Below, one piece after another: positions 1,972 to 59,121 of a stretch of 64,000 nucleotides of DNA. Below the pieces are notes generated by a model. That model was not told the origin of the DNA. It saw only the letters and a program-made list of their open reading frames with translations, and did not search any database. The DNA lies in the sequence record OK272482.1. The stretch is one strand, 5' to 3'. The DNA comes from Escherichia phage JLBYU08. Position numbers and translations under genes: made by a program. Every line of letters begins with the position of its first letter. Positions within the stretch are counted from its first letter, which is position 1.

Positions 1972-2442
1972 ATGAAACTTGATAAAAATGTTCAACGAAA
2001 AGCTTTCTTGGACATGATCGCATATTCGGAAGGCACAGATAATGGTAGGCAACCCACTAAGGATCGGGGATACGATGTCATAGTTGGTGGCAAGCTGTTT
2101 AGCGATTACAGCAAGCATCCAGGTGTGTACGTTAAGCTAAATGCTAAACTTACCTCCTCCGCTGCTGGTCGTTACCAGGTTTTGGAGAAGTTTGCTAAAC
2201 ACTACATGGAACAGTTAGGATTGCCAGATTTTGGCCCCGCCAGTCAGGACAAGATTGCGTTGCAACTGATCCGTGAGTGCAAGGCTCTCGCCGACATTGA
2301 CGAAGGGCGTATCCACGAGGCTATCCATAAATGCCGTTCCCGCTGGGCTTCGTTACCTGGTGCTGGATATGGTCAGCATGAACAGAAGATCGAGAAGTTG
2401 ATCGAGGTGTTTAAAAAGGCAGGCGGTGTTGTCCTTGATTGA
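1972..2442 (+). CDS. endolysin, lambda R-like lytic transglycosylase
   Basis: Blocks QRKAFLDMIAYSEGTDNGRQ, GYDVIVGG, AGRYQVL, WASLPGAGYGQ match phage lambda R almost residue for residue. Confidence 0.9.
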   Translation: MKLDKNVQRKAFLDMIAYSEGTDNGRQPTKDRGYDVIVGGKLFSDYSKHPGVYVKLNAKLTSSAAGRYQVLEKFAKHYMEQLGLPDFGPASQDKIALQLIRECKALADIDEGRIHEAIHKCRSRWASLPGAGYGQHEQKIEKLIEVFKKAGGVVLD

Positions 2443-12333: not shown

Positions 12334-14645
12334 TCACCAAGGTAATTAAAAGCAACGGATGTGAAGTGGCATTCGATCCAGAACGTTTAAATAAGGCAGC
12401 TATTTTCGGTGACGACGGTAACGGCAATTGGTCACATATTGCACTGGATGCATACAAACGACTGTATGATGGATGTACAACCAAAGAAGTTAACCAAGCT
12501 ATCATAGACTCCTGTGTTAGCCGTAAAGACGAAGCACATTCCCGTATGGCTGGTCGTGTTCTTATTGGTCAGATTTATAAAGAGGCTTTTGGAGGGTTTA
12601 CAAAGATCCCTTCCTTACCATCATTTTACAACGACATGGTTGAGAAAGGGTATTGGGAGGATATGGGATATAGCTTTACCGAGCTAAACACTTTAGACGC
12701 TGTTATTGACCACAGTAAAGATCTCGGTTATGGCTATGCAGTCCTTAAACAGTTTCGCGACAAATACGGGATCAAGGATACTCTTAAAGACACCTTGTTT
12801 GAATCTCCCCAGATGATGTTTATGGGGATAGCAATGGCTGTCATGAAGAATATGCCGAAAGAACGTCGTATCAACGATGTTGTAAAATTATACACTTATC
12901 TGTCCGACTTAAAGATCAATGCCCCGACACCGTACTTAAACGGGCTGCGCACAGGTAAGACAGGGTATGCATCTTGTTGTGTAATAAAAGCTGACGATAC
13001 AGCAAAATCTATTGGTGTGGCACGTGAAGTTGCGTACACAATGACGGTTAACCAAGCAGGTATCGGCTACTATTTATCATCAAGATCTGCAGGTGATGGT
13101 GTTCGCGGTAACACTATTAAACACATGGGTAAGATTCCATATTATCGAGGTATTGATGCTGGTGTTAAGGAGAACAGACAACAATCACGTGGCGGTTCTG
13201 CAACAGTATCATTCCTTGCACTGGACCCGCAGATTGATGAGCTAATCCGTTTGAGAAACCCTATGACTGTTGCTTCAAAAAGAATCAACACCATGGACTA
13301 CTCCATCGGTATTAATAGGTCGTTTATCAACCGTGTGGCTAAGAATTTAGATTGGATGCTTGTTTCTTATAAGCACGCTCCTCAACTGCATGAGGGTATC
13401 TTCACCATGTCTATGGAGGAGTTCGATGCAGAGGTTGAGCGTATTGCTAAAGATGACAGTATTCCTAAGACATGGATCCGGGCTAGAGATCTTGCTGTTG
13501 AGCTGATCACGCAGCGTACTGAGGTGGGAAGGCTGTACGTATACTGGACAGATGAGATGAATAGACATACACCTTTTAAAGATGTGATCTATTCAAGCAA
13601 CCTGTGTGCAGAAATAGCCCTCCCGACAAAAGGCTATTCAGATATGCGTAATATCTTCAAGTACGATGTTGATGATGGTGAGGTTGCATTGTGCTTCCTG
13701 TCATCTCTTGTAGCTGGAAGGGTTACCCCAGAGGAGTATGAGGATGTTGCATACTACACGGTGCTTATGATTGACAATGTTATGGAAATCATGACATATC
13801 CGTATGAAAACATGGAGAGTACTGTTAAAAAACGCAGATCCATCGGGGTTGGCCTTACCAATGTTGCACATTTTATTGCCAGCCACAAGGTTACTTACGG
13901 ATCTCCTGAAAGTAAACAGCTTGTTCACGATCTTGCAGAACTTCACAGCTACAGCTTGCATAAGGCAAGTTTACGGTTGGCAAAAGAGCGTGGTGTCTGC
14001 GAGTGGATGTATAAAACAAAATATCCAGAAGGTTGGTTACCAATCGACACTTATAACAAAGAGGTCGATAGTGTGGTGAAAGATCCTTCTCTTAAACAGG
14101 ATTGGGAAGGGTTACGTAAAGAAATCATTGAAAATGGTGGGCTACGTAATAGCGTTCTTGAAGCATATATGCCTAATGAAAGCTCTTCGCTGGCAACAAA
14201 CACCACTAACGGGGTTTATCCTGTCCGTGAGCACATTATCTTTAAAAAGTCGCCACAAGGGCAGGTGCTGTTTATCGTTCCTGAATACGATGAGTTGAAA
14301 GAGTATTACACTTCGGCTTGGGACGTTGATACTAACGACATGATCGATATGTATGCTGTGATTCAAAAATTCACAGGTCAGGCAATCAGCGCGGATTTAT
14401 ACATAGACTACACCAAGTTGAAAGATGGTAAAATTTCAATGAAGGAGCAGCTAGGGTACCTTATCCGTGCCACTAAATTCGGGATGAAGACATGGTATTA
14501 TTTAAACTCTAGGGTTGGTGCTGGTGACTCCTTGGCAGAGGAACTTCATGCCAAGAAACAGGCTGAAGATGAAACCAGAAAGAACTATCCTTTGATTGCA
14601 GATAGTTCAGTTGAAGATCCGTATTGCGAAAGCTGTGCACTATAA
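12330..14645 (+). CDS. nrdA: ribonucleotide reductase class Ia large subunit
   Basis: ATP-cone at N-terminus, NLCAEI active-site block, C-terminal tail with Cys pair (CESCAL). Confidence 0.9.
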   Translation: MITKVIKSNGCEVAFDPERLNKAAIFGDDGNGNWSHIALDAYKRLYDGCTTKEVNQAIIDSCVSRKDEAHSRMAGRVLIGQIYKEAFGGFTKIPSLPSFYNDMVEKGYWEDMGYSFTELNTLDAVIDHSKDLGYGYAVLKQFRDKYGIKDTLKDTLFESPQMMFMGIAMAVMKNMPKERRINDVVKLYTYLSDLKINAPTPYLNGLRTGKTGYASCCVIKADDTAKSIGVAREVAYTMTVNQAGIGYYLSSRSAGDGVRGNTIKHMGKIPYYRGIDAGVKENRQQSRGGSATVSFLALDPQIDELIRLRNPMTVASKRINTMDYSIGINRSFINRVAKNLDWMLVSYKHAPQLHEGIFTMSMEEFDAEVERIAKDDSIPKTWIRARDLAVELITQRTEVGRLYVYWTDEMNRHTPFKDVIYSSNLCAEIALPTKGYSDMRNIFKYDVDDGEVALCFLSSLVAGRVTPEEYEDVAYYTVLMIDNVMEIMTYPYENMESTVKKRRSIGVGLTNVAHFIASHKVTYGSPESKQLVHDLAELHSYSLHKASLRLAKERGVCEWMYKTKYPEGWLPIDTYNKEVDSVVKDPSLKQDWEGLRKEIIENGGLRNSVLEAYMPNESSSLATNTTNGVYPVREHIIFKKSPQGQVLFIVPEYDELKEYYTSAWDVDTNDMIDMYAVIQKFTGQAISADLYIDYTKLKDGKISMKEQLGYLIRATKFGMKTWYYLNSRVGAGDSLAEELHAKKQAEDETRKNYPLIADSSVEDPYCESCAL

Positions 14646-34007: not shown

Positions 34008-35536
34008 CACACAATTAGCTGCCCGGCTAAAGTGCTGGAAGCACCTATAACACATCTTTCAACTAAATTTCCTACAACCACAATCACTTACCTCCCACAC
34101 ATGACTGTTTGCTTGTTTAGTGAGCAGTCATGCCTTGACATTCTTGCCTATCCTGATAAAATTAAGTTCTTCTCTTTTCTTTTACCGAGTAATTCGGGTT
34201 TTCTGTTCTCTTCGGTTTGAAGGGGTATGGAGATACACCTGAGTGAACAGGGTGAACAACCGAACATTTGGCTATGGCATTAGCATGGCGAAGCGGACGG
34301 GTGACGAAAGAGGGGCCGGAGGACACCAGTCACTGCCATATGATATATGGGTGATAACCTGAAGAGTCTGAATAAGTGTTTAAGTACCAGTCAGAGGAAA
34401 AGGTGAATGGTAGCCGAAGGGGGAGGGGGGGTTTCTTGTATCTTTAATTTGTATATTATGTATACACTTGTAAACCAATCTCATTTGAATTTGTTTACCA
34501 CACAAAGGGGATAGAGACAAATATTATCTATTAAACTTGAATTATTTATAGAAAATACCACAACACCACTTAAGTCTTTGATTTTACACACAAATCCTAC
34601 AGATATTCACCCTCCATATTTAACATACCTGTAACATATTCCATACCCTACCTGTCTGATCAATTCACCCAACCACACCCTCCATATTTTCCCTGTCTGT
34701 ACCACCCCTGCCCCGCCGGGAGTCCCGTCATATCTGGCTTTCCAGCAAATATCACACCCACAAATATCATTGCCTGAAGAGGGTTTCATCCCATAATACC
34801 TGCCTTACCTGAAGAGCGCTTCATATACCCCGTAAATTTTTTTAATTGACCTCCTCCCCGCCGCCGGAGGGGTCGGCTTTTCCCACACAGGCCTGAAGAG
34901 TCAGCCAGAAATATTTGAACAGGTCCAGTTATACCACGATTTTGACCTGACCGACAGGGAGGCCCGAAGGGTCTAGCTTTCAGCTAGAGTCCTTGCAGGA
35001 CCTACAGGAGCGCTGCCAGGCGGACGAAATGGGAATACTTCTCATTCTTATAACAATTCTCAAATATCAAGGCAGTGAGGCAAATTAATAGGTGAGGCCG
35101 TTCACATAGTGGCACAACATTTGCAATCTATTTTGTGTGGGGGAATGAGAATACATATCATTGTGAGAACCATTATCATTACGGGCAATTTAACATAATA
35201 CCCATTATACGCACCACTGACGATACATACAGGGATTGATAACATGGGTTACTGTTTACGCATATAACAATTATATTTCTTACTATTTGTGTGGGATATA
35301 GTTAGCAGCCGATAGATTAGATATTGACCTGCGGACTTCTGACCGTCTAGACGTCTAAACGCCCACACAACAAGGCTTATACATACATCGCTGAATGTAA
35401 ACAGGGCCGCAAAAATGCTACCATACCAGATTGTAAATTTTTCATGCAGCACTTGACAAAGAGGAGAAAAACTTGTCTGACACAATATGACATACTGGGC
35501 ACATTAAACACACTTTAGACTTAATTGACATGCCTG

Positions 35537-37453: not shown

Positions 37454-37726
37454 TTACTTACGGCGGCAGAATTCAAGCGTTTTTAATTGATAATCTTCCT
37501 CAGCCTGGAGTACAACCGCCTCGATCATTTCGTTGGCATTGTTGAAGCCATACCCTTTAGCGAACTCATCCGCACCACCTTCGTGATCATGTTCTGCGTT
37601 CATCGCTTCCACGAAATGGAATTCAAGATTATTGAGATAAGGGCTTGATGTTCCGTCCTCTTTTTCGATGAGATCCCAAATAGCATTAAAACGTGATTCG
37701 ACTTCTTGATTAATCCAGCTTGACAT
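37454..37726 (-). CDS. hypothetical acidic protein
   Basis: 90-aa ORF. Confidence 0.45.
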   Translation of the reverse strand: MSSWINQEVESRFNAIWDLIEKEDGTSSPYLNNLEFHFVEAMNAEHDHEGGADEFAKGYGFNNANEMIEAVVLQAEEDYQLKTLEFCRRK

Positions 37727-37945
37727 AATGTTTTCCTCTCTTCTGGTTGTTGTGTGGGCACTTTTGCCCCTTCAAGATAAATGTTACCCCACCACCTGGC
37801 AGATGTCAACGGTTTTTATAGTTCTTATATGACAGGCAGGCCCGGTGATTGTCTCCCCCTGTTCCCAAGTGCCGCCCGTTTAATAAGAATAGCAAAAGGG
37901 GCCGAACAAGTCAACCCCCAAAATCAGTACCAAAACACTTTTTAT

Positions 37946-38257
37946 TTATACGGTCCGATCATTGGCCTTTGTCCAGGACCTGGCGATCCGTTTCCCGGTC
38001 ACCTGGAACGGAGACTGCATTGTGTGTAAGGAGTCCAGCGTAAGGGAGGACCGTTTACGGCGTATCTTCAGGATCGCTAACGTATTGTCCATCTCACGGC
38101 CAGGCCCTGGGCGGTATGGTGTGCCTCCAGCGTTAAGGTTGATGATCTCATGTATTGAGATCCGGCGTTGTTTTGCTTCCGCATCTTTGAAGATAGCCAG
38201 CGGAGGAGCTATGCGTTGCCGATACCAATCTAAAACGGTTGGCGTAATAGCGATCAT
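37946..38257 (-). CDS. hypothetical protein
   Basis: 103-aa ORF. Confidence 0.4.
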   Translation of the reverse strand: MIAITPTVLDWYRQRIAPPLAIFKDAEAKQRRISIHEIINLNAGGTPYRPGPGREMDNTLAILKIRRKRSSLTLDSLHTMQSPFQVTGKRIARSWTKANDRTV

Positions 38258-41296: not shown

Positions 41297-41334
41297 TACT
41301 CCTTTTTGCACTGATTATTTTAACAAGGTTTAAA

Positions 41335-41378
41335 TTTACTTTATTGATGGCCCTGGAGTCAAGGCCATCTAAAAATAA
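41335..41378. repeat. 44-bp intergenic palindromic element, copy 1 of 3
   Basis: TTTACTTTATTGATGGCCCTGGAGTCAAGGCCATCTAAAAATAA. Confidence 0.7.
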
Positions 41379-41381
41379 ATT

Positions 41382-44693: not shown

Positions 44694-44767
44694 GTACTTT
44701 CTCCTTTCATGGTGTTAATAAATTATCTTTATAGATGGCCCTGCAACCAGGACCACCGAAAAAATAA

Positions 44768-45013
44768 CTATTTCACAATGCCTACAAAACAGATCCCGCC
44801 TTCACCTATATAAGCAATATCGGTCACTTTATAACTTGTCAAGATCTGCTTATTTAGTTCATTAATAAAATCGGTCATTGCGTTGGTGTAGTTGTCTTCC
44901 GTGTCTAAGGCATAATCCCAGGTGTACACCTTTTTACGTCCGAAGCCTTTTACCATGATACGGGCGCTTTTGGTGTTGGTAGGGGCATAATATTTGGTGA
45001 TTAGTGCTGCCAT
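44768..45013 (-). CDS. hypothetical protein
   Basis: 81-aa ORF. Confidence 0.45.
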   Translation of the reverse strand: MAALITKYYAPTNTKSARIMVKGFGRKKVYTWDYALDTEDNYTNAMTDFINELNKQILTSYKVTDIAYIGEGGICFVGIVK

Positions 45014-45046: not shown

Positions 45047-45090
45047 CAGTATAAAGTTTACTTTATTGATGGCCCTGGTGTCAAGGCCAT
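45047..45090. repeat. 44-bp intergenic palindromic element, copy 2 of 3
   Basis: TTTACTTTATTGATGGCCCTGGTGTCAAGGCCATCTAAAAATAA. Confidence 0.7.
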
Positions 45091-45102
45091 CTAAAAATAA
45101 GC

Positions 45103-45444
45103 TTACTCGTTTTCTTCCAGCTCCGCAAGCTCTTCTTTTGCTTCTTCTAACTCTGTCTGTAATTCCTGGTATTCTTCATCGTCCTCAATATCCAGGCTGT
45201 CGATGTAGTCGCTAAATCCGCAGCGGTAAGCGATAGGATCTAGCTCCTTGAGGATACGCGACGGAAGAAAAGAAATGTTTCCGATCATAATTTCGCCGTA
45301 GATCTCGTCTAACCATTCATCATAGTTTTCGTCGTACTTGTCCTCGTCGATTTCAAAGTTATCGATCTTATTCTCAAGGTCTGCGATCTGTTTTTTCAGT
45401 TCAGCGATCTGCATAGCTTTTTCTGAGGCGGTCATAGTAGTCAT
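45103..45444 (-). CDS. highly acidic coiled-coil protein
   Basis: 113 aa, strongly acidic (DIEDDEEYQELQTELEEAKEELAELEENE). Confidence 0.5.
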   Translation of the reverse strand: MTTMTASEKAMQIAELKKQIADLENKIDNFEIDEDKYDENYDEWLDEIYGEIMIGNISFLPSRILKELDPIAYRCGFSDYIDSLDIEDDEEYQELQTELEEAKEELAELEENE

Positions 45445-45643: not shown

Positions 45644-45677
45644 CTTTAAGCCTCCTTTTCCGCTCAACTGTGGTTAG

Positions 45678-45721
45678 TTTACTTTATTGATGGCCCTGGT
45701 GTCAAGGCCATCTAAAAATAA
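45678..45721. repeat. 44-bp intergenic palindromic element, copy 3 of 3
   Basis: Identical to copy 2. Confidence 0.7.
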
Positions 45722-45723
45722 AC

Positions 45724-46119
45724 TCAATAAGTTTTTAGTACTTTCCCGTCCAATCTGTCAAGCTGGATCTCGATAGCTGCAGAAAACCTATTGTAAACCA
45801 CATCGCCCAGGGAGTCCAGCCAATCTATGACGTTATATACCTGCTCTTTATTCTTGCAAGTCCGGATCCGTTTCATTACGTAAGACGGATCAATATTAGC
45901 GCTCTCGTTGTTGTGGTCCTGCGCCTGGCCTGCTGCGCTAGTTATAGATTTTACAACCACCTGAAAGGGCTTTAAGGTGCCTTTTGCGTTCATCTCACGC
46001 GCTTTTGCGGCGCGGTTGTTATATGTTACACAACGGCGGCAAATGTTGACCAAATGCATATCAATAATTTTTTCATCGTTTGCCAGTTCGTTCATGATGC
46101 GGCGTACGTTCTTATTCAT
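45724..46119 (-). CDS. hypothetical protein
   Basis: 131-aa ORF. Confidence 0.45.
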   Translation of the reverse strand: MNKNVRRIMNELANDEKIIDMHLVNICRRCVTYNNRAAKAREMNAKGTLKPFQVVVKSITSAAGQAQDHNNESANIDPSYVMKRIRTCKNKEQVYNVIDWLDSLGDVVYNRFSAAIEIQLDRLDGKVLKTY

Positions 46120-46940: not shown

Positions 46941-47257
46941 CGACTATTTTAAATTATTTTTATGATAGAATCCACCTGCCGTCCCCGCCAGGTTAACCAC
47001 CATTTTTCGTACTCTTCTTTATGTTCCAACGCTCCCGCCATAGCCTTTTCAACCAGGGCGATAGCCTCAGAGTCATTAATAGCTACATTTTCCAGGGGGG
47101 ATCATATCATTTTTGTACCTCCTCTTCAATTGTTACCTATCCTGTAGCATAGGCCCACCAGGTTTACAAGCCTTCATTCTCCCCTACCTGGTCAGTTAGG
47201 TCCTGCCAGGCTGGCCCCGCCAGGTGGCACAATATACCTATCGAAAGGACGGCAGGC

Positions 47258-47475
47258 ACCGGTGACGGGGGAGACAACCACCGGGGATGGGCGCTGCATA
47301 AAATGAGAACGGTTATCATTATCATTTAAAAATTTATGCAAAAAAAAAAATCCTTGCTTTCTTTGTCCTGTGTGATACTATAATAACAAGCCGGGGCAAC
47401 AGGGGCCGGGAGACAATCACCGGGCCTGCCCGTTATTCTGCAAACGAGAATGATTATCATTCAAAATTCTAAATG
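47258..47475. repeat. two about 75-bp direct repeats sharing core GGGAGACAAYCACCGGG and GAGAAYGRTTATCATT
   Basis: Copies at about 47258-47335 and 47399-47475; inverted core copy at 37838-37872. Confidence 0.55.
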
Positions 47476-47578
47476 AGAACTCCTCGCATTTAATAAATTT
47501 AATTAGCACGCTAATTACCCTCCGTAACAATTTACTATAAAATAGTATCCACTAAAATATTCCCATATAGAAATTTTA

Positions 47579-47761
47579 AAAATCCATTTCTGAAAACGAA
47601 AAATCGATTTCGTCCCCAAAAATTTCAGGTTGAGAGCCGGAACGATTTCCAGAAAATCCGATTCAGAAAACGAAAAACAGATCGAGTACTGAGAAATTTA
47701 TCGAGAAAAATTTTCAGAAAATCCAAGCCCTGAAATGAAAAGTAGATCGAGTACCTGGAAA
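47579..47761. repeat. degenerate tandem repeats (CAGAAAAYCC ... AGATCGAGTAC units)
   Basis: TTCAGAAAA(C/T) four times and AGATCGAGTAC twice at about 65-bp spacing. Confidence 0.5.
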
Positions 47762-48066
47762 GCTGCACCGCAACTTCAAGATAGCGGTTAGATTGTTACC
47801 ATAGAAGGTCAAGGGTAAGTGGAGGAAGTTCTAGTAGAGAGAGGTTAGCATGTGTGGGAAATCTATAATGGTGGCCTGGAATATGGTGCAAACGATAGGA
47901 TGAGTTATTCAGCTTGTCGCGCCTACTCTGAAAAATCCATTTTAGTTTTCGATCCATTTTCTGATTTTCTAAGAATTTTAAAATATCCAGCCCGGTGAAA
48001 TATCAAAAGGAGGAAATCCATTTTAGAAATCCCCCTTATACTTGATATGCCAGAAATTTTCAAGTA

Positions 48067-48396
48067 TCAGTTGTCTTTGTTTTTAGGTTTGTACATGCGC
48101 AGAGGTATGGTCTTTGTAACATTCCATTTCCTCAACCCTTCCCAGCTCCAGTTGTGGGCGTGGTATCCGGTTATGCATGCACTACTGGAGTGATCGTAAG
48201 CATAAGAGAACGCTAAGCGCACCAGGTGGGGCCAGTCCTTCCATGGTTGTGGACCGTAAGCTTTTCTCCAACACCGACACAAACTAAATGTCTCAAGGAT
48301 AGGAAGGATAACAAACCCATACACTGTCACCAAAATAGCCAGTGCAATGATTGTCAGGAATACATACCCTGCAGTTGAAATGATGATCTCTGTCAT
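48067..48396 (-). CDS. membrane protein
   Basis: N-terminal TM. Confidence 0.45.
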   Translation of the reverse strand: MTEIIISTAGYVFLTIIALAILVTVYGFVILPILETFSLCRCWRKAYGPQPWKDWPHLVRLAFSYAYDHSSSACITGYHAHNWSWEGLRKWNVTKTIPLRMYKPKNKDN

Positions 48397-56368: not shown

Positions 56369-56697
56369 CATCTGTTCAGGTAGGTCGTTAAGCTACCCCG
56401 CACCATTACGTGCATAGCCATACAGTTTCCTGTATGGATCGGACTACCTCACTGCCTTGGTAACAAGGCACCTCCCATTTCGACCGCACTTGCTGGCCTA
56501 CTCTACTCGCTTCTTCACACCAACCTATGTTGGAGCTATGCTTTCGATAGTCTCTGAACGTTCATCCTCTCGGATGCTTCGCTGCGGATTAGCATATTGA
56601 GCTTTTACCATACTCAGGTGTAAAAGTCAACTTAGCTTTCCCGTCAATTAAAGAGGTTATTCGACATAGATCACTCTATGAAGCCACAATGTTATTT
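56369..56697 (-). other. group I self-splicing intron (no internal ORF)
   Basis: Minus-strand core elements P AATTGACGGGAAAGC, Q AATCCGCAGC, R GTTCAGAGACTA, S GTAGTCCGATCC; exon 1 ends in U, intron ends in G; boundaries inferred. Confidence 0.7.
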
Positions 56698-59121
56698 ATG
56701 GTAATAGATAATACGACGGACACCTTCATCGTACCACCCACGCTTCACCATTTGGTGGTGCATGAGTATCCCAACTAAGTCACACAACGATGCACCACCA
56801 TTTTGTTGGTATGCATTAAGTAAAGAGTGTTTAGATCGGGTCCAGATGGCATGACCATCAAAAGAGTATATAAACTTCTTACCAGTTGCTTCCCAGAATT
56901 TCTCCAGATCCTCTTTACGCCCCTTAAGACCAGGGTTGGCATCCCAAAGCGCATCGATTACCCTTTGCCCCAACTCTGGAGAGATATCCAGCATGTCTGC
57001 AACTTTATCTTTTTGTGCCCCGTACATAACCCCATACGTGATAGGTTTACCGTCGTTACGGGACACCTCTCTGCCTGCTACTTTTGTATATGCCTCAGCA
57101 TTGTTTTGGTGTGCGTCCCCGTTACTTACAACATCATAATACAAGCCGTTGTCGAACTCAAAGGCACCCCAAGCCCCGATAAGCTGCTCTAAGTTGGACC
57201 CGTCAATACCGATCTCAAAGTATCCTGGAGGAACACCCCACAGACTACGCATCTCTTTACCCATAACCACTTTAGGAGATGGTTTAGGCATGTTTGCACA
57301 AATACTGTGTTTCTGTCGGGAAGTGTTTGTTAGCCCAGAACTTTTAGCAGGAAGCTTATGGTCAATCTTCAAACGTGGGTGATTAAGAAGACCAGTATCA
57401 ACCTTATCCTCCTTGATTGGATCAAGGACCGATCTGCGGTTTCGCAATGATAACCACAAGACGATATCTTTAGCCATCTCTCCGTTCAATTTTTCAAGAT
57501 TTGGGCATAGGTGTCCAAACGTATCTTTCAGCTGCGGAGAAGTAATAAGTGCTCTGGCTTTTCTACGTATTTTCCCGAATACTTCCTTTTTAATCCTTTC
57601 GGAGTTAGGAAAGCTTCGGAACTTGTGCACGGTTGTCTGAAACTTAGCATCAGTTTTGTTCCAGAAGTTGATAATCAGGTCACAATACTCTGACTCTAAA
57701 AGCTCGTCCATGTATGCATATACTCGTGCATCAACATCTGCATCAGGTAGAGCTTTCTTCTTGCTGTCTTTAGTTACATCCTTAGTTCTCCACATTGTCG
57801 GAAGCCAACCAGCACTGATCAGGTATCGCTTAATGTCGTCCTGATTGCTGATTTTCATAGGTATCTTGCAGTCCGGCATTCGCTTCTGCTGTAGATCACT
57901 TATTGCCTGATCCATCAGCTCTTTAGGTAAAGGTTGTGGTGTGGAAGTGCCCTTAATATAGCCTCTCAAGAAATCAGCCATCTTATCAGGGTCTTTGCAG
58001 CCCATCTCTTCACACCATTTTATCCCCATCTTGCTGACATCTCCTGTGGAGGTAAATGCTCGCTTAGGCGGGGCTTTGAACTCCAAAGCACTCATGTCCA
58101 CAGGATAGCCAAGCTTATCTTTTAACCATTTCCAACCATTGTTGGAGATTGTCCCATCTTGGTTAAACGGCTTTTCAGGGAACTTGGGCCGCTGAGACAT
58201 TGACAGCTCTTTTAAAGGAAGTTGAGGTTCAACACGATCAGCGATTTCTTTCATCCACGCATCGCAACGGTCACGTAAAGCAATAGCTCCATCTATGTCG
58301 AAGTATACACCCTGACGGGCCTGCAGCTCCATCAGGAAGTGCTGCAGCATGCCTCGACGTAGTGCGTTCTTCCAGGTGATCTTCTTGAACCCTTTCGGCT
58401 TCTCTTTGGCTGGATCGTACATAAAGTTCTGCATGTCAGATTTGCCGTAGAATACACCTTTTGATTCCGCTACCAGCTCTTTCCAGAGCAGCTCCTGGAT
58501 GATAACGTCCTCGAATACACGATCCACATACTTCCACAACGGAAGATCGCGCCAGTCATCAATTTGAACTTTCTGGTTACCAAGGGCGTAGCCCCATGCC
58601 ATAAGGCCGTGAGGACCAACAGGCTGCATTTTCTTAGTAACCGGGTTGAATACAGAGTCCGGACAACCTTTTGGTAAAGGGCGATCAGGCCACAAGATTC
58701 GGCTCATCGCCAACGTATCAAACAGGTTAACCTGGTGGTCGTTGATAGTCCCCATACATTTAGGATCACGGAACATATCAAAATGAATACCGGATAATCT
58801 CTCCATCAGCATAAAGTCATAACTGTAGCAGTTATGGCAGTTCAAAGCTGTTGGTGACCAGTCGGAATTGCCTGTAAGCCAACCCTCCAACTCTGAAAAA
58901 TCTGCTATGCGAACTTCAAAATCTTTATAAAAAGTTTTCTTTGCCAGAATAAAGTTCTTAGCCTTCTCTATATCCTCTTCGGAGTAGTGTGTGCGGTCAT
59001 TTAGAGGAAGGAACAGCATAAAACGGTTCTTATTCAGCTCTTTAAACAGGCCGCAGTGATAATAAAGATCTGGGTCTTCCAGCAAACCGGATGACTCAAA
59101 ATCGAACGACCACATGCTCAT
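56698..59121 (-). CDS. DNA polymerase family A, exon 1 (3'-5' exo and polymerase domains to the His of motif C)
   Basis: Exo I DFESSG at N-terminus, motif B KPITYGVMYGAQ; uninterrupted frame would stop 2 codons after the inferred splice site. Confidence 0.8.

Follow-up and report, generated by a model that had tools for sequence, protein, structure and literature searches.

A short invariant element behind predicted early promoters of rV5-like phages, a candidate transcription-linked control signal

The window considered here is a stretch of 64,000 nucleotides (nt) of Escherichia phage JLBYU08 (sequence record OK272482.1), a Vequintavirus—that is, an rV5-like myovirus—with a G+C content of 42–45% and a match of 94% to phage isim across 12.5 kb. 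Between about 35.3 kb and 64 kb, every gene is encoded on the minus strand, and the subject of this study, a repeated element with the 12-base core GAGACAAWCACC, sits in two of the gaps between them. The gap at 37727–37945 holds one copy (B), while the other two (A1 and A2) share some 0.9 kb of DNA that is free of open reading frames (ORFs) and is flanked by genes whose ends lie near 47.1 kb and at 48067. Read in the sense of the motif, A1 and A2 run antisense to all neighbouring genes, and downstream of them there is neither a credible ORF nor an intrinsic terminator in the DNA that is entered. The motif-sense direction of B leads into a second promoter and then into the last genes of the early unit. 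In GenBank records, the motif, where annotated, appears as a hypothetical ORF or as a 'terminator'; this annotation is corrected here, as the ORFs drawn across the motif in several records (rV5 ORF198, for example) are spurious.

An earlier note on this DNA had described three copies of a 23-mer, one of them inverted at 37838–37872. Two copies of the 23-mer (GGGAGACAATCACCGGGCCTGCC) are indeed exact, namely A2 and the inverted B, but the third, A1 (GGGAGACAACCACCGGGGATGGG), is a diverged copy with 18 of 23 matching bases. All three are intergenic, and B begins 3 nt earlier than had been reported and ends well before 37872 (Table 1). That such copies are unlikely by chance is borne out by 100 dinucleotide-preserving shuffles, in which none is expected even with up to three mismatches allowed; at the same tolerance, the window shows no match beyond A2 and B. 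A repeat finder extends the A2–B match to 29 nt at 93% identity (47408–47436 against 37829–37857, repeat I5), and finds the 19-nt centre of A1 to be 95% complementary to 37841–37859 (repeat I18). A1 and A2, 139 nt apart, form the core of a tandem duplication of about 140 bp (family D14), and the 5' arm of A1 (GGCAGGCACCGGTGACGGGG) is closer to the B copies of rV5 than to A2. A profile built from relatives recovers exactly these three sites from the window, with E-values of 8e-14, 2e-12, and 2e-5 among them, and nothing else. The complete genome of phage C12 (MG065635, 137.6 kb), in which a whole-genome check was made and to which 60-nt probes of the window match exactly wherever they mapped (five of seven, including those adjoining B and A2), likewise holds these three copies and no fourth.

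The comparison with related phages narrows the element considerably. In distant relatives—including Certrevirus CR3, phiTE, and POP17, Seunavirus GAP31 and GEC_vB_MG, Mydovirus KpS8, and Phapecoctavirus ESCO13—BLAST aligns only some 55–160 nt of intergenic DNA, and the motif site is always included; in distant genera, an island of 55–90 nt is all that can be detected in intergenic sequence that does not align elsewhere. A conservation profile anchored on the core was drawn from 34 distinct copies of at least six genera, taken from fetched loci, IMG/VR, and metagenomes. In this profile, 10 of the 12 columns of GAGACAA.CACC carry the full 2 bits and the downstream block TGC..G 1.6–1.8 bits (about 1.5–2 bits per column for the two blocks overall), while the flanks, including their GC-rich part, carry 0.1–0.9 bits. 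The core is thus GAGACAAWCACC, in which the W position is free to vary, followed by a near-invariant TGCS. Since the information profile is an island, only these 12 nt and the short downstream block are truly constrained. The claim that the element is conserved therefore stands for the element and its position but not for its length of 23 nt, as the identity of A2 and B over the whole 23-mer is a within-genome feature.

Syntenic copies occur in Vequintavirus, Certrevirus, Seunavirus, Mydovirus, and Phapecoctavirus, as well as in unclassified metagenomic relatives. In the first three genera, an A copy lies in a gap of about 1 kb and a B copy in the opposite orientation 8–10.6 kb off (about 9.5–10.6 kb in a second tally of these genera), the two pointing away from each other; Seunavirus and Mydovirus hold a third, diverged copy where transcription units converge. 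No copies were found in E. coli genomes, and the sole full-length match among plasmids is probably a phage genome of rV5 type that was deposited under that label. Record CP057073.1, entered as a non-mobilizable plasmid of an E. coli isolate from cattle faeces, carries 156 nt of the A2 region at 96.8% identity; its 137,565 bp are the size of an rV5-like genome, and it is probably a lytic phage genome within a bacterial assembly. To judge from its conservation, the repeat is a functional element rather than a chance repeat, and several of its features had escaped the earlier note: the invariance of only 12 nt, the degeneracy of the third copy, and its place within a larger module that also comprises a promoter, a leader rich in G and C, and Fur-like palindromes.

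The best-defined companion of the core is a predicted promoter. Nearly all copies lie behind -35 and -10 hexamers of sigma-70 type, spaced by 16–18 nt, upstream and in the same orientation, and the orientation of the motif is that of the promoter in every copy. Among 28 distinct copies, 25 have a TG-extended -10, and the mean promoter score is 9.2 of 13, compared with 5.6 for random segments from the same loci; 54% of the copies score at least 10 (background, 1.4%). In 23 of these 28 copies, 27–31 nt (mode 30) separate the -10 from the core, with an intervening sequence that is almost free to vary, and the orthologues of A2 in other genera stand behind near-consensus promoters at equal distance. 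The four A1 copies show a distance of 37 nt, and one metagenomic copy (L157), which has no convincing promoter, one of 38 nt. With this fixed distance, the core would span roughly +24 to +35 of the motif-sense transcript.

The three promoters of the window are of unequal quality. That of A1 retains a -10-like element, while isim, rV5, and A13b have TTGACA-17-CA(C/A)AAT at this site. Just upstream of A1, at about 46995–47230, many megablast alignments to other Vequintavirus genomes break; this stretch is regarded as a recombination or indel hotspot, because the TTGACA of the other phages has been replaced in the window. At B, a terminator-like hairpin of the upstream gene (37897–37919, minus strand) holds the -35 of the promoter in its loop, and its T-run is the promoter spacer; a similarly compact overlap of terminator and promoter is also seen in CR3 and POP17.

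Table 1. Copies of the element in the window and the features that accompany them
Feature	Position	Strand	Description
Copy A1	47269..47291	+	degenerate 23-mer (18/23); core GAGACAACCACC at 47271-47282
Copy A2	47408..47430	+	exact 23-mer; core GAGACAATCACC at 47410-47421, followed by GGGCC and TGCC
Copy B	37835..37857	-	exact 23-mer, inverted; core at 37844-37855
A1 extended -10-like element	47225..47238	+	TGgCACAAT; -35 lost in the window; score 6
A2 promoter (predicted)	47354..47384	+	-35 TTGCTT (47354-47359), 16-nt spacer, extended -10 TGaTACTAT (47373-47381) overlapping TATAAT (47379-47384); 8/13 in own scoring; predicted start near 47388
B promoter (predicted)	37886..37914	-	TTGACT-17-TATTCT, extended TG; 10/12 with TG in consensus scan; 30 nt from -10 end to core
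A2 leader	47388..47445	+	GC-rich, several G-runs; predicted to open the transcript (~55 nt); core at ~+23 to +34
B leader RNA region	37825..37879	-	potential pairing of the 5' end with the GCCTGCCTGT segment
A1 Fur-box-like site	47305..47323	+	GAGAACGGTTATCATTATC; 16/19 to the 19-bp Fur consensus (17/19 in C12)
A2 Fur-box-like palindrome	47446..47462	+	GAGAATGATTATCATTC; 16 nt past the 23-mer; perfect 7-1-7 dyad GAATGAT-T-ATCATTC at 47448-47462
Degenerate second A2 box	47475-47490		Fur-box-like site
Second promoter after B	37781..37809	-	TTGACA-17-TAACAT; 25 nt past the 23-mer; annotated P168 in rV5; followed by gene 37726-37454
ORF-free remainder beyond the A2 box	47463..48066	.	AT-rich; repeats GAAAATCC(A/G)TTT and AGATCGAGTAC (family D2)

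The repetition itself could have a trivial origin, in which paralogous promoter cassettes similar to the PeSL cassettes of T4-type phages were spread and homogenised by recombination or gene conversion, and the core, devoid of any specific function, is simply their best-preserved part. Other repeated cassettes of hairpin plus promoter do exist in this genome (family D1), and in most Vequintavirus genomes A2 and B share their 3'-flank allele, either GGGCC or GGGGG(G), which together with the resemblance of A1 to the B copies of rV5 is consistent with gene conversion. However, the same 12 nt are invariant across subfamilies whose flanks cannot be aligned, the fixed promoter distance would go unexplained, and allele sharing is not strict, being broken in YP-6 (Vequintavirus) and in CR3 and POP17 (Certrevirus); such an origin is accordingly given only a slender chance. 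Gene conversion or mosaic recombination from time to time accounts for the allele pattern better than an interaction that the two copies must maintain, and it also explains the identity of A2 and B over 23–29 nt in the window. Strictly concerted evolution of A2 and B, which would have hinted at pairing in trans, was rejected on the same three discordant phages; moreover, both transcripts would have one sense, so that they would not complement each other. The idea that the inverted copies delimit a mobile element was discarded as well, there being no transposase and an arrangement that is syntenic in all genera.

In several relatives, a further non-coding element of 80–95 nt (ACGCCACCCCACGGCGAAAAGGCGGGGCTAACGTACCGGGC...GGTCGGAAGGTGGATCGCCGGTAGTTCG), with a promoter of its own, lies directly upstream of the A module. 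It was located at 2049–2178 (minus strand) of L007, 1389–1467 (minus) of L002, 1712–1790 (minus) of L003, 14557–14675 (plus) of L009, and 14200–14294 (plus) of L006, and in pieces at 2057–2139 (minus) of L005. Its sequence is 87–94% conserved across Seunavirus, Certrevirus, Mydovirus, and Phapecoctavirus, it has no match in Rfam, and in Vequintavirus it is absent, with A1 in its place. By its looks, it might be an undescribed structured RNA.

The second companion of the core consists of palindromes that resemble Fur boxes. Like the Fur box (GATAATGATAATCATTATC), they share the 19-bp consensus, matched at 15–17 of 19 positions by the A1 and A2 boxes, and the 7-1-7 dyad, which at A2 is perfect over 15 bp. 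Boxes with no more than two mismatches cluster beside the motif in every genus, and genome-wide they are nearly confined to motif loci; CR3 holds up to four of them, spaced by 29–32 nt. A 28-nt stretch over the A2 box (47441–47468) recurs at 96% immediately upstream of a Peripla_BP_2 gene on bacterial plasmids, and this position, in front of a gene of the siderophore/haem-binding family, is by its gene context a typical one for a Fur operator. Unlike Fur operators, which cover the -35 and -10, the phage boxes would lie past the starts, between about +55 and +110, and it is possible that a phage protein with Fur-like specificity is the binder of these putative boxes. A strictly lytic phage with genuine Fur operators would be an unusual case. 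Weaker Fur-like boxes are also found in the convergence zone at 35 kb (35033–35047 and 35147–35185). By coordinate arithmetic, the GenBank record of C12 starts at position 35025 of the window, within this same zone, and the match coordinates of several other Vequintavirus records suggest nearby starts, for which a physical terminus and a deposit convention are both possible.

Such palindromes raise the question of whether the core itself is a double-stranded DNA operator, where a phage or host protein would bind GAGACAAWCACC(N5-6)TGC past the start and co-regulate the three promoters—for instance by shutting them off—perhaps together with the palindrome binder. The 12 invariant bases amid variable flanks without covariation, the tight spacing to the -10, and the classic operator-type palindromes that immediately adjoin all speak for this mechanism. 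Nevertheless, the site is non-palindromic and present once per promoter, a position of about +24 to +35 is outside those usual for repressors, and the complementarity of the flanks, which tolerates G-U pairs on the sense strand, would be needless for a DNA site. The neighbouring proteins, in addition, matched only PHROGs of unknown function, and no DNA-binding gene was identified nearby among them. An operator is therefore considered unlikely on balance, if well worth taking seriously.

The region into which the A promoters point suggests another role. Beyond the A2 box, the ORF-free DNA is AT-rich and repetitive, it is kept as a gap of 0.9–1 kb in other genera, and the matching gap in Certrevirus (CR3, phiTE) carries GATCGAGACC repeats, so that this remainder possibly represents the replication origin of rV5-like phages. 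The A promoters might then give a G-rich RNA for an R-loop, a primer, or transcriptional activation of that origin, with the core as a processing or primase–helicase signal and B as a weaker second site. In agreement with this, two tandem promoters aim at a 0.9–1 kb AT-rich, ORF-free region with iteron-like repeats whose position is conserved across genera, and G-clusters occur in the first 45 nt of the non-template strand. The complement of the GACAA in the core, TTGTC, resembles a T7-type primase site. The rV5-like replisome is of T7 type, with a primase–helicase and a Pol A, and the authors of the rV5 genome paper, who merely labelled the corresponding stretch 'non-coding', could not place the origin (PMC3606486). 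However, B in Vequintavirus meets a normal gene promoter within 25 nt, and then a gene, instead of AT-rich repeats, and the GC and AT skew profiles of the window show no interpretable origin signal at 47.5 kb. An origin transcript is thus given a rather low probability.

The earlier note had also suggested that the repeat is part of a small structured RNA. Almost all copies do stand behind a predicted sigma-70 promoter at a fixed distance and would be transcribed in the sense of the motif, and folding of both strands gave 58-nt elements that are modestly better than shuffles, with a mean z of -1.07 for the sense and -0.61 for the antisense strand. Pairing of the 5' end with a TGCC(C/T)G(C/T) arm is significant in the B copies of Vequintavirus and the A copies of Certrevirus (p 0.002–0.06; in rV5, -22 kcal/mol and p = 0.002). 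A 6-bp helix within a few nt of the predicted start (AURGCG with CGYYAU) has 86% of its cells paired, compared with 29–57% in slid registers, including 16 G-U cells and one A-U/G-U/G-C series, and variants of B with a changed 3' arm keep a helix via another register of the same 5' arm. Overall, the sense RNA tends to have its 5' end in base pairs, with the 12-mer left exposed. The 'structured' part of the suggestion fared less well, as there is no fold common to the genera and no significant covariation. A universal fold was sought with hand-built helices (P1/P2), RNAalifold, and pair counting, and was abandoned, as these yielded only lineage-specific helices. Recognition at the level of sequence best explains the invariance of the core, whether what is read is the RNA, the non-template strand, or the DNA duplex.

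Two other readings of the leader were rejected by eye. A small ORF starting in the core (an SD-like, that is, Shine–Dalgarno-like, GGGAGA plus AUC) fails in copies with W = A, where the start codon is missing, and a G-quadruplex with the core as its loop, possible in A2 and B of Vequintavirus, would find no four G-tracts in Certrevirus and Phapecoctavirus.

An exposed core would also suit trans-acting small RNAs, in which case A1, A2, and B would be paralogues whose 12-nt loop serves as a seed for a conserved host or phage RNA or for the binding and titration of a host protein, perhaps under Fur or iron control. The short, single-stranded-looking invariant segment between variable stems is what such RNAs might show, as are the strong predicted promoters with no ORF, the several paralogues per genome, and the adjoining Fur-type boxes. 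Still, no intrinsic terminator is there to set a 3' end, the phage genome holds no complementary target beyond chance-level matches of 11 of 12, and the W position varies freely, which leaves small RNAs with a slim probability.

The element is most likely a transcription-linked control signal, undescribed so far, because its core sits about 24–35 bases downstream of three predicted early promoters beside Fur-type sites. In the specific form preferred here, it would be a promoter-proximal, orientation-dependent cis signal of a small class of early transcription units; this is a tentative choice, and one that may well prove wrong. The module is envisaged to consist of a host sigma-70 promoter, usually with an extended -10, an initial transcribed region of about 55 nt that is GC- and G-rich and whose 5' end can pair with TGCC(C/T)G(C/T), the invariant GAGACAAWCACC at about +24 to +35, and usually one to four Fur-box-like palindromes. 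The 12-mer would act in cis on its own transcription complex. With the polymerase still within some 35–50 nt of the start, it would be recognised either in the exposed nascent RNA or in the non-template strand, and would serve as a pause or recruitment signal that sets the fate of the transcript, that is, its elongation competence, attenuation, or stability. The tandem modules A1 and A2 would fire against the neighbouring genes into the ORF-free, AT-rich repeat region, whereas the B module would head the last early operon. The copies, their conservation and orientation, the linkage to the promoters and its spacing, and the association with the palindromes are observed directly; promoter activity, the reading of RNA or of the non-template strand, and the effect that this reading has are inferred.

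Several points weigh against this cis-acting signal. The promoters of the copies are predictions, and in the window those of A1 and A2 are weaker (scores of 6 and 8) and are not called by a simple consensus scan. For the A transcripts, it is not obvious which gene they could regulate, and an intrinsic terminator is lacking. As for the leader, the z-scores of its folds are modest, the pairing of the 5' end is absent in several other lineages, and RNAalifold finds no consensus structure across genera and, within the B lineage, a weak one (-9.3 kcal/mol) with no compensatory pairs; the 6-bp helix, moreover, is no better than its column-shuffle control. Strict invariance without covariation, combined with a fixed promoter distance, means that a double-stranded DNA site fits equally well. 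The neighbouring proteins, finally, offer no candidate for a reader protein.

A bolder scheme would join all parts of the module into an iron-gated switch, in which host Fur on the palindromes blocks or releases the GAGACAAWCACC transcripts, the core—as a new class of ops- or put-like signal—loads a factor on the polymerase, and the transcripts activate or prime the origin. This is a long shot; if true, a strictly lytic family would couple early transcription and replication to the iron status of its host. Quite apart from this, the Vequintavirinae and Stephanstirmvirinae (relatives of rV5, phi92, and PVP-SE1) are among the most used broad-host-range phages in therapy and biocontrol, and their early regions consist almost entirely of unannotated small ORFs. 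The element offers a handle on this biology: in each genome, it points to three special predicted promoters, to an invariant signal of 12 nt whose position is fixed, to Fur-type sites, and to a candidate origin.

Two further features of the window were recorded. An intergenic repeat of 49 nt occurs in four copies (41333–41381, 44721–44769, 45055–45103, and 45676–45724), which are 69–98% identical to the reference copy. Each has a GC hairpin (GATGGCCnnnGGCCATC) with TTGACA in the loop on the gene strand and an A/T-rich tail, so that these repeats are terminator-plus-promoter cassettes reminiscent of the PeSL elements of T4-type phages. A group I intron lies at 56419–56707 on the minus strand (Rfam RF00028, 72.5 bits); rV5 is reported to carry introns in its large terminase gene.

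The comparison with known families begins with the RNA databases. A scan of the whole window against Rfam release 15 at the gathering threshold returned only the intron, permissive scans of 47150–48070 and 37700–37960 gave chance-level matches far below the gathering scores, and scans of the relatives returned nothing; ARAGORN found no tRNA or tmRNA genes in the window. Literature searches by sequence and by topic found no description of the motif.

The closest functional analogues, by analogy of placement and behaviour, would be the put sites of HK022, the nut sites of lambda, and the ops element. Like putL and putR, and more loosely like nut, the phage copies are short elements just 3' of (predicted) early promoters, in two to three paralogous copies, some of which are inverted. 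The put and nut sites act in cis on the transcribing polymerase, and their inverted copies reflect divergent promoters. Unlike them, two of the three phage copies face non-coding DNA and not operons with terminators to overcome. No two-stem-loop fold of the put type was found across genera, the fold of the B lineage being the weak one mentioned above, and when the three copies were compared by BLAST with a 12.4-kb part of HK022 that covers the immunity region (in a record where put sites are unannotated), only chance matches of at most 11 nt appeared. The boxA of lambda (YGCTCTTTA) has three chance-level matches in the window (5748, 45842, and 60933), all far from the copies, and the closest resemblance to it at the copies themselves is a CGCTATTC-type sequence in other genera, matching by eye at 6 of 8 positions.

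With ops, the recruitment site of RfaH, the core shares a length of 12 nt, a proposed orientation dependence, invariance, a place in the leader, and the lack of a conserved RNA fold. The ops element is read on the non-template strand at a pause, and its sequence (GGCGGTAGnnTG) differs from the phage core; no match to it was found at or near the three sites, and no NusG- or RfaH-like phage protein was identified. Compared by eye with the elemental-pause consensus, the core has the G(-10), the C(-1), and mostly the G(+1), so that it may fit a pause pattern. Membership in the put, nut, or ops families was rejected on both sequence and structure.

On the other hand, the A locus resembles phi1.1A/1.1B of T7, oriF/oriG of T4, and RNA II of ColE1, with tandem promoters that lead into an AT-rich, gene-free region and a G-rich transcript that could persist as a hybrid. 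In contrast to these origin promoters, the phage modules use host sigma-70 promoters, and the same leader also heads an ordinary operon at B. A likeness also exists to PeSL, reportedly described by Arbiol and colleagues in 2010 as mobile promoter/stem-loop cassettes of T4-type phages, in that repeated early-promoter modules occur in a hyperplastic early region of many small ORFs. PeSL elements, however, are direct repeats of a promoter and a terminator hairpin with no conserved leader, whereas the conserved part of the phage modules would be transcribed and is kept across subfamilies. ToxI-like 36-nt repeats, suspected via phiTE, were excluded, as there is no match in the homologous phiTE region; the pseudo-ToxI locus of that phage lies elsewhere in its genome, at 106.7 kb (PMC3475682).

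The motif is thus best described as undescribed in Rfam and in the searchable literature, but as kin to known promoter-proximal leader signals, with Fur-type operators and a candidate origin as unusual company. Should it prove to bring a factor to RNA polymerase, the small set of promoter-proximal signals of elongation control, so far nut, put, ops, and qut, would gain a new sequence class.

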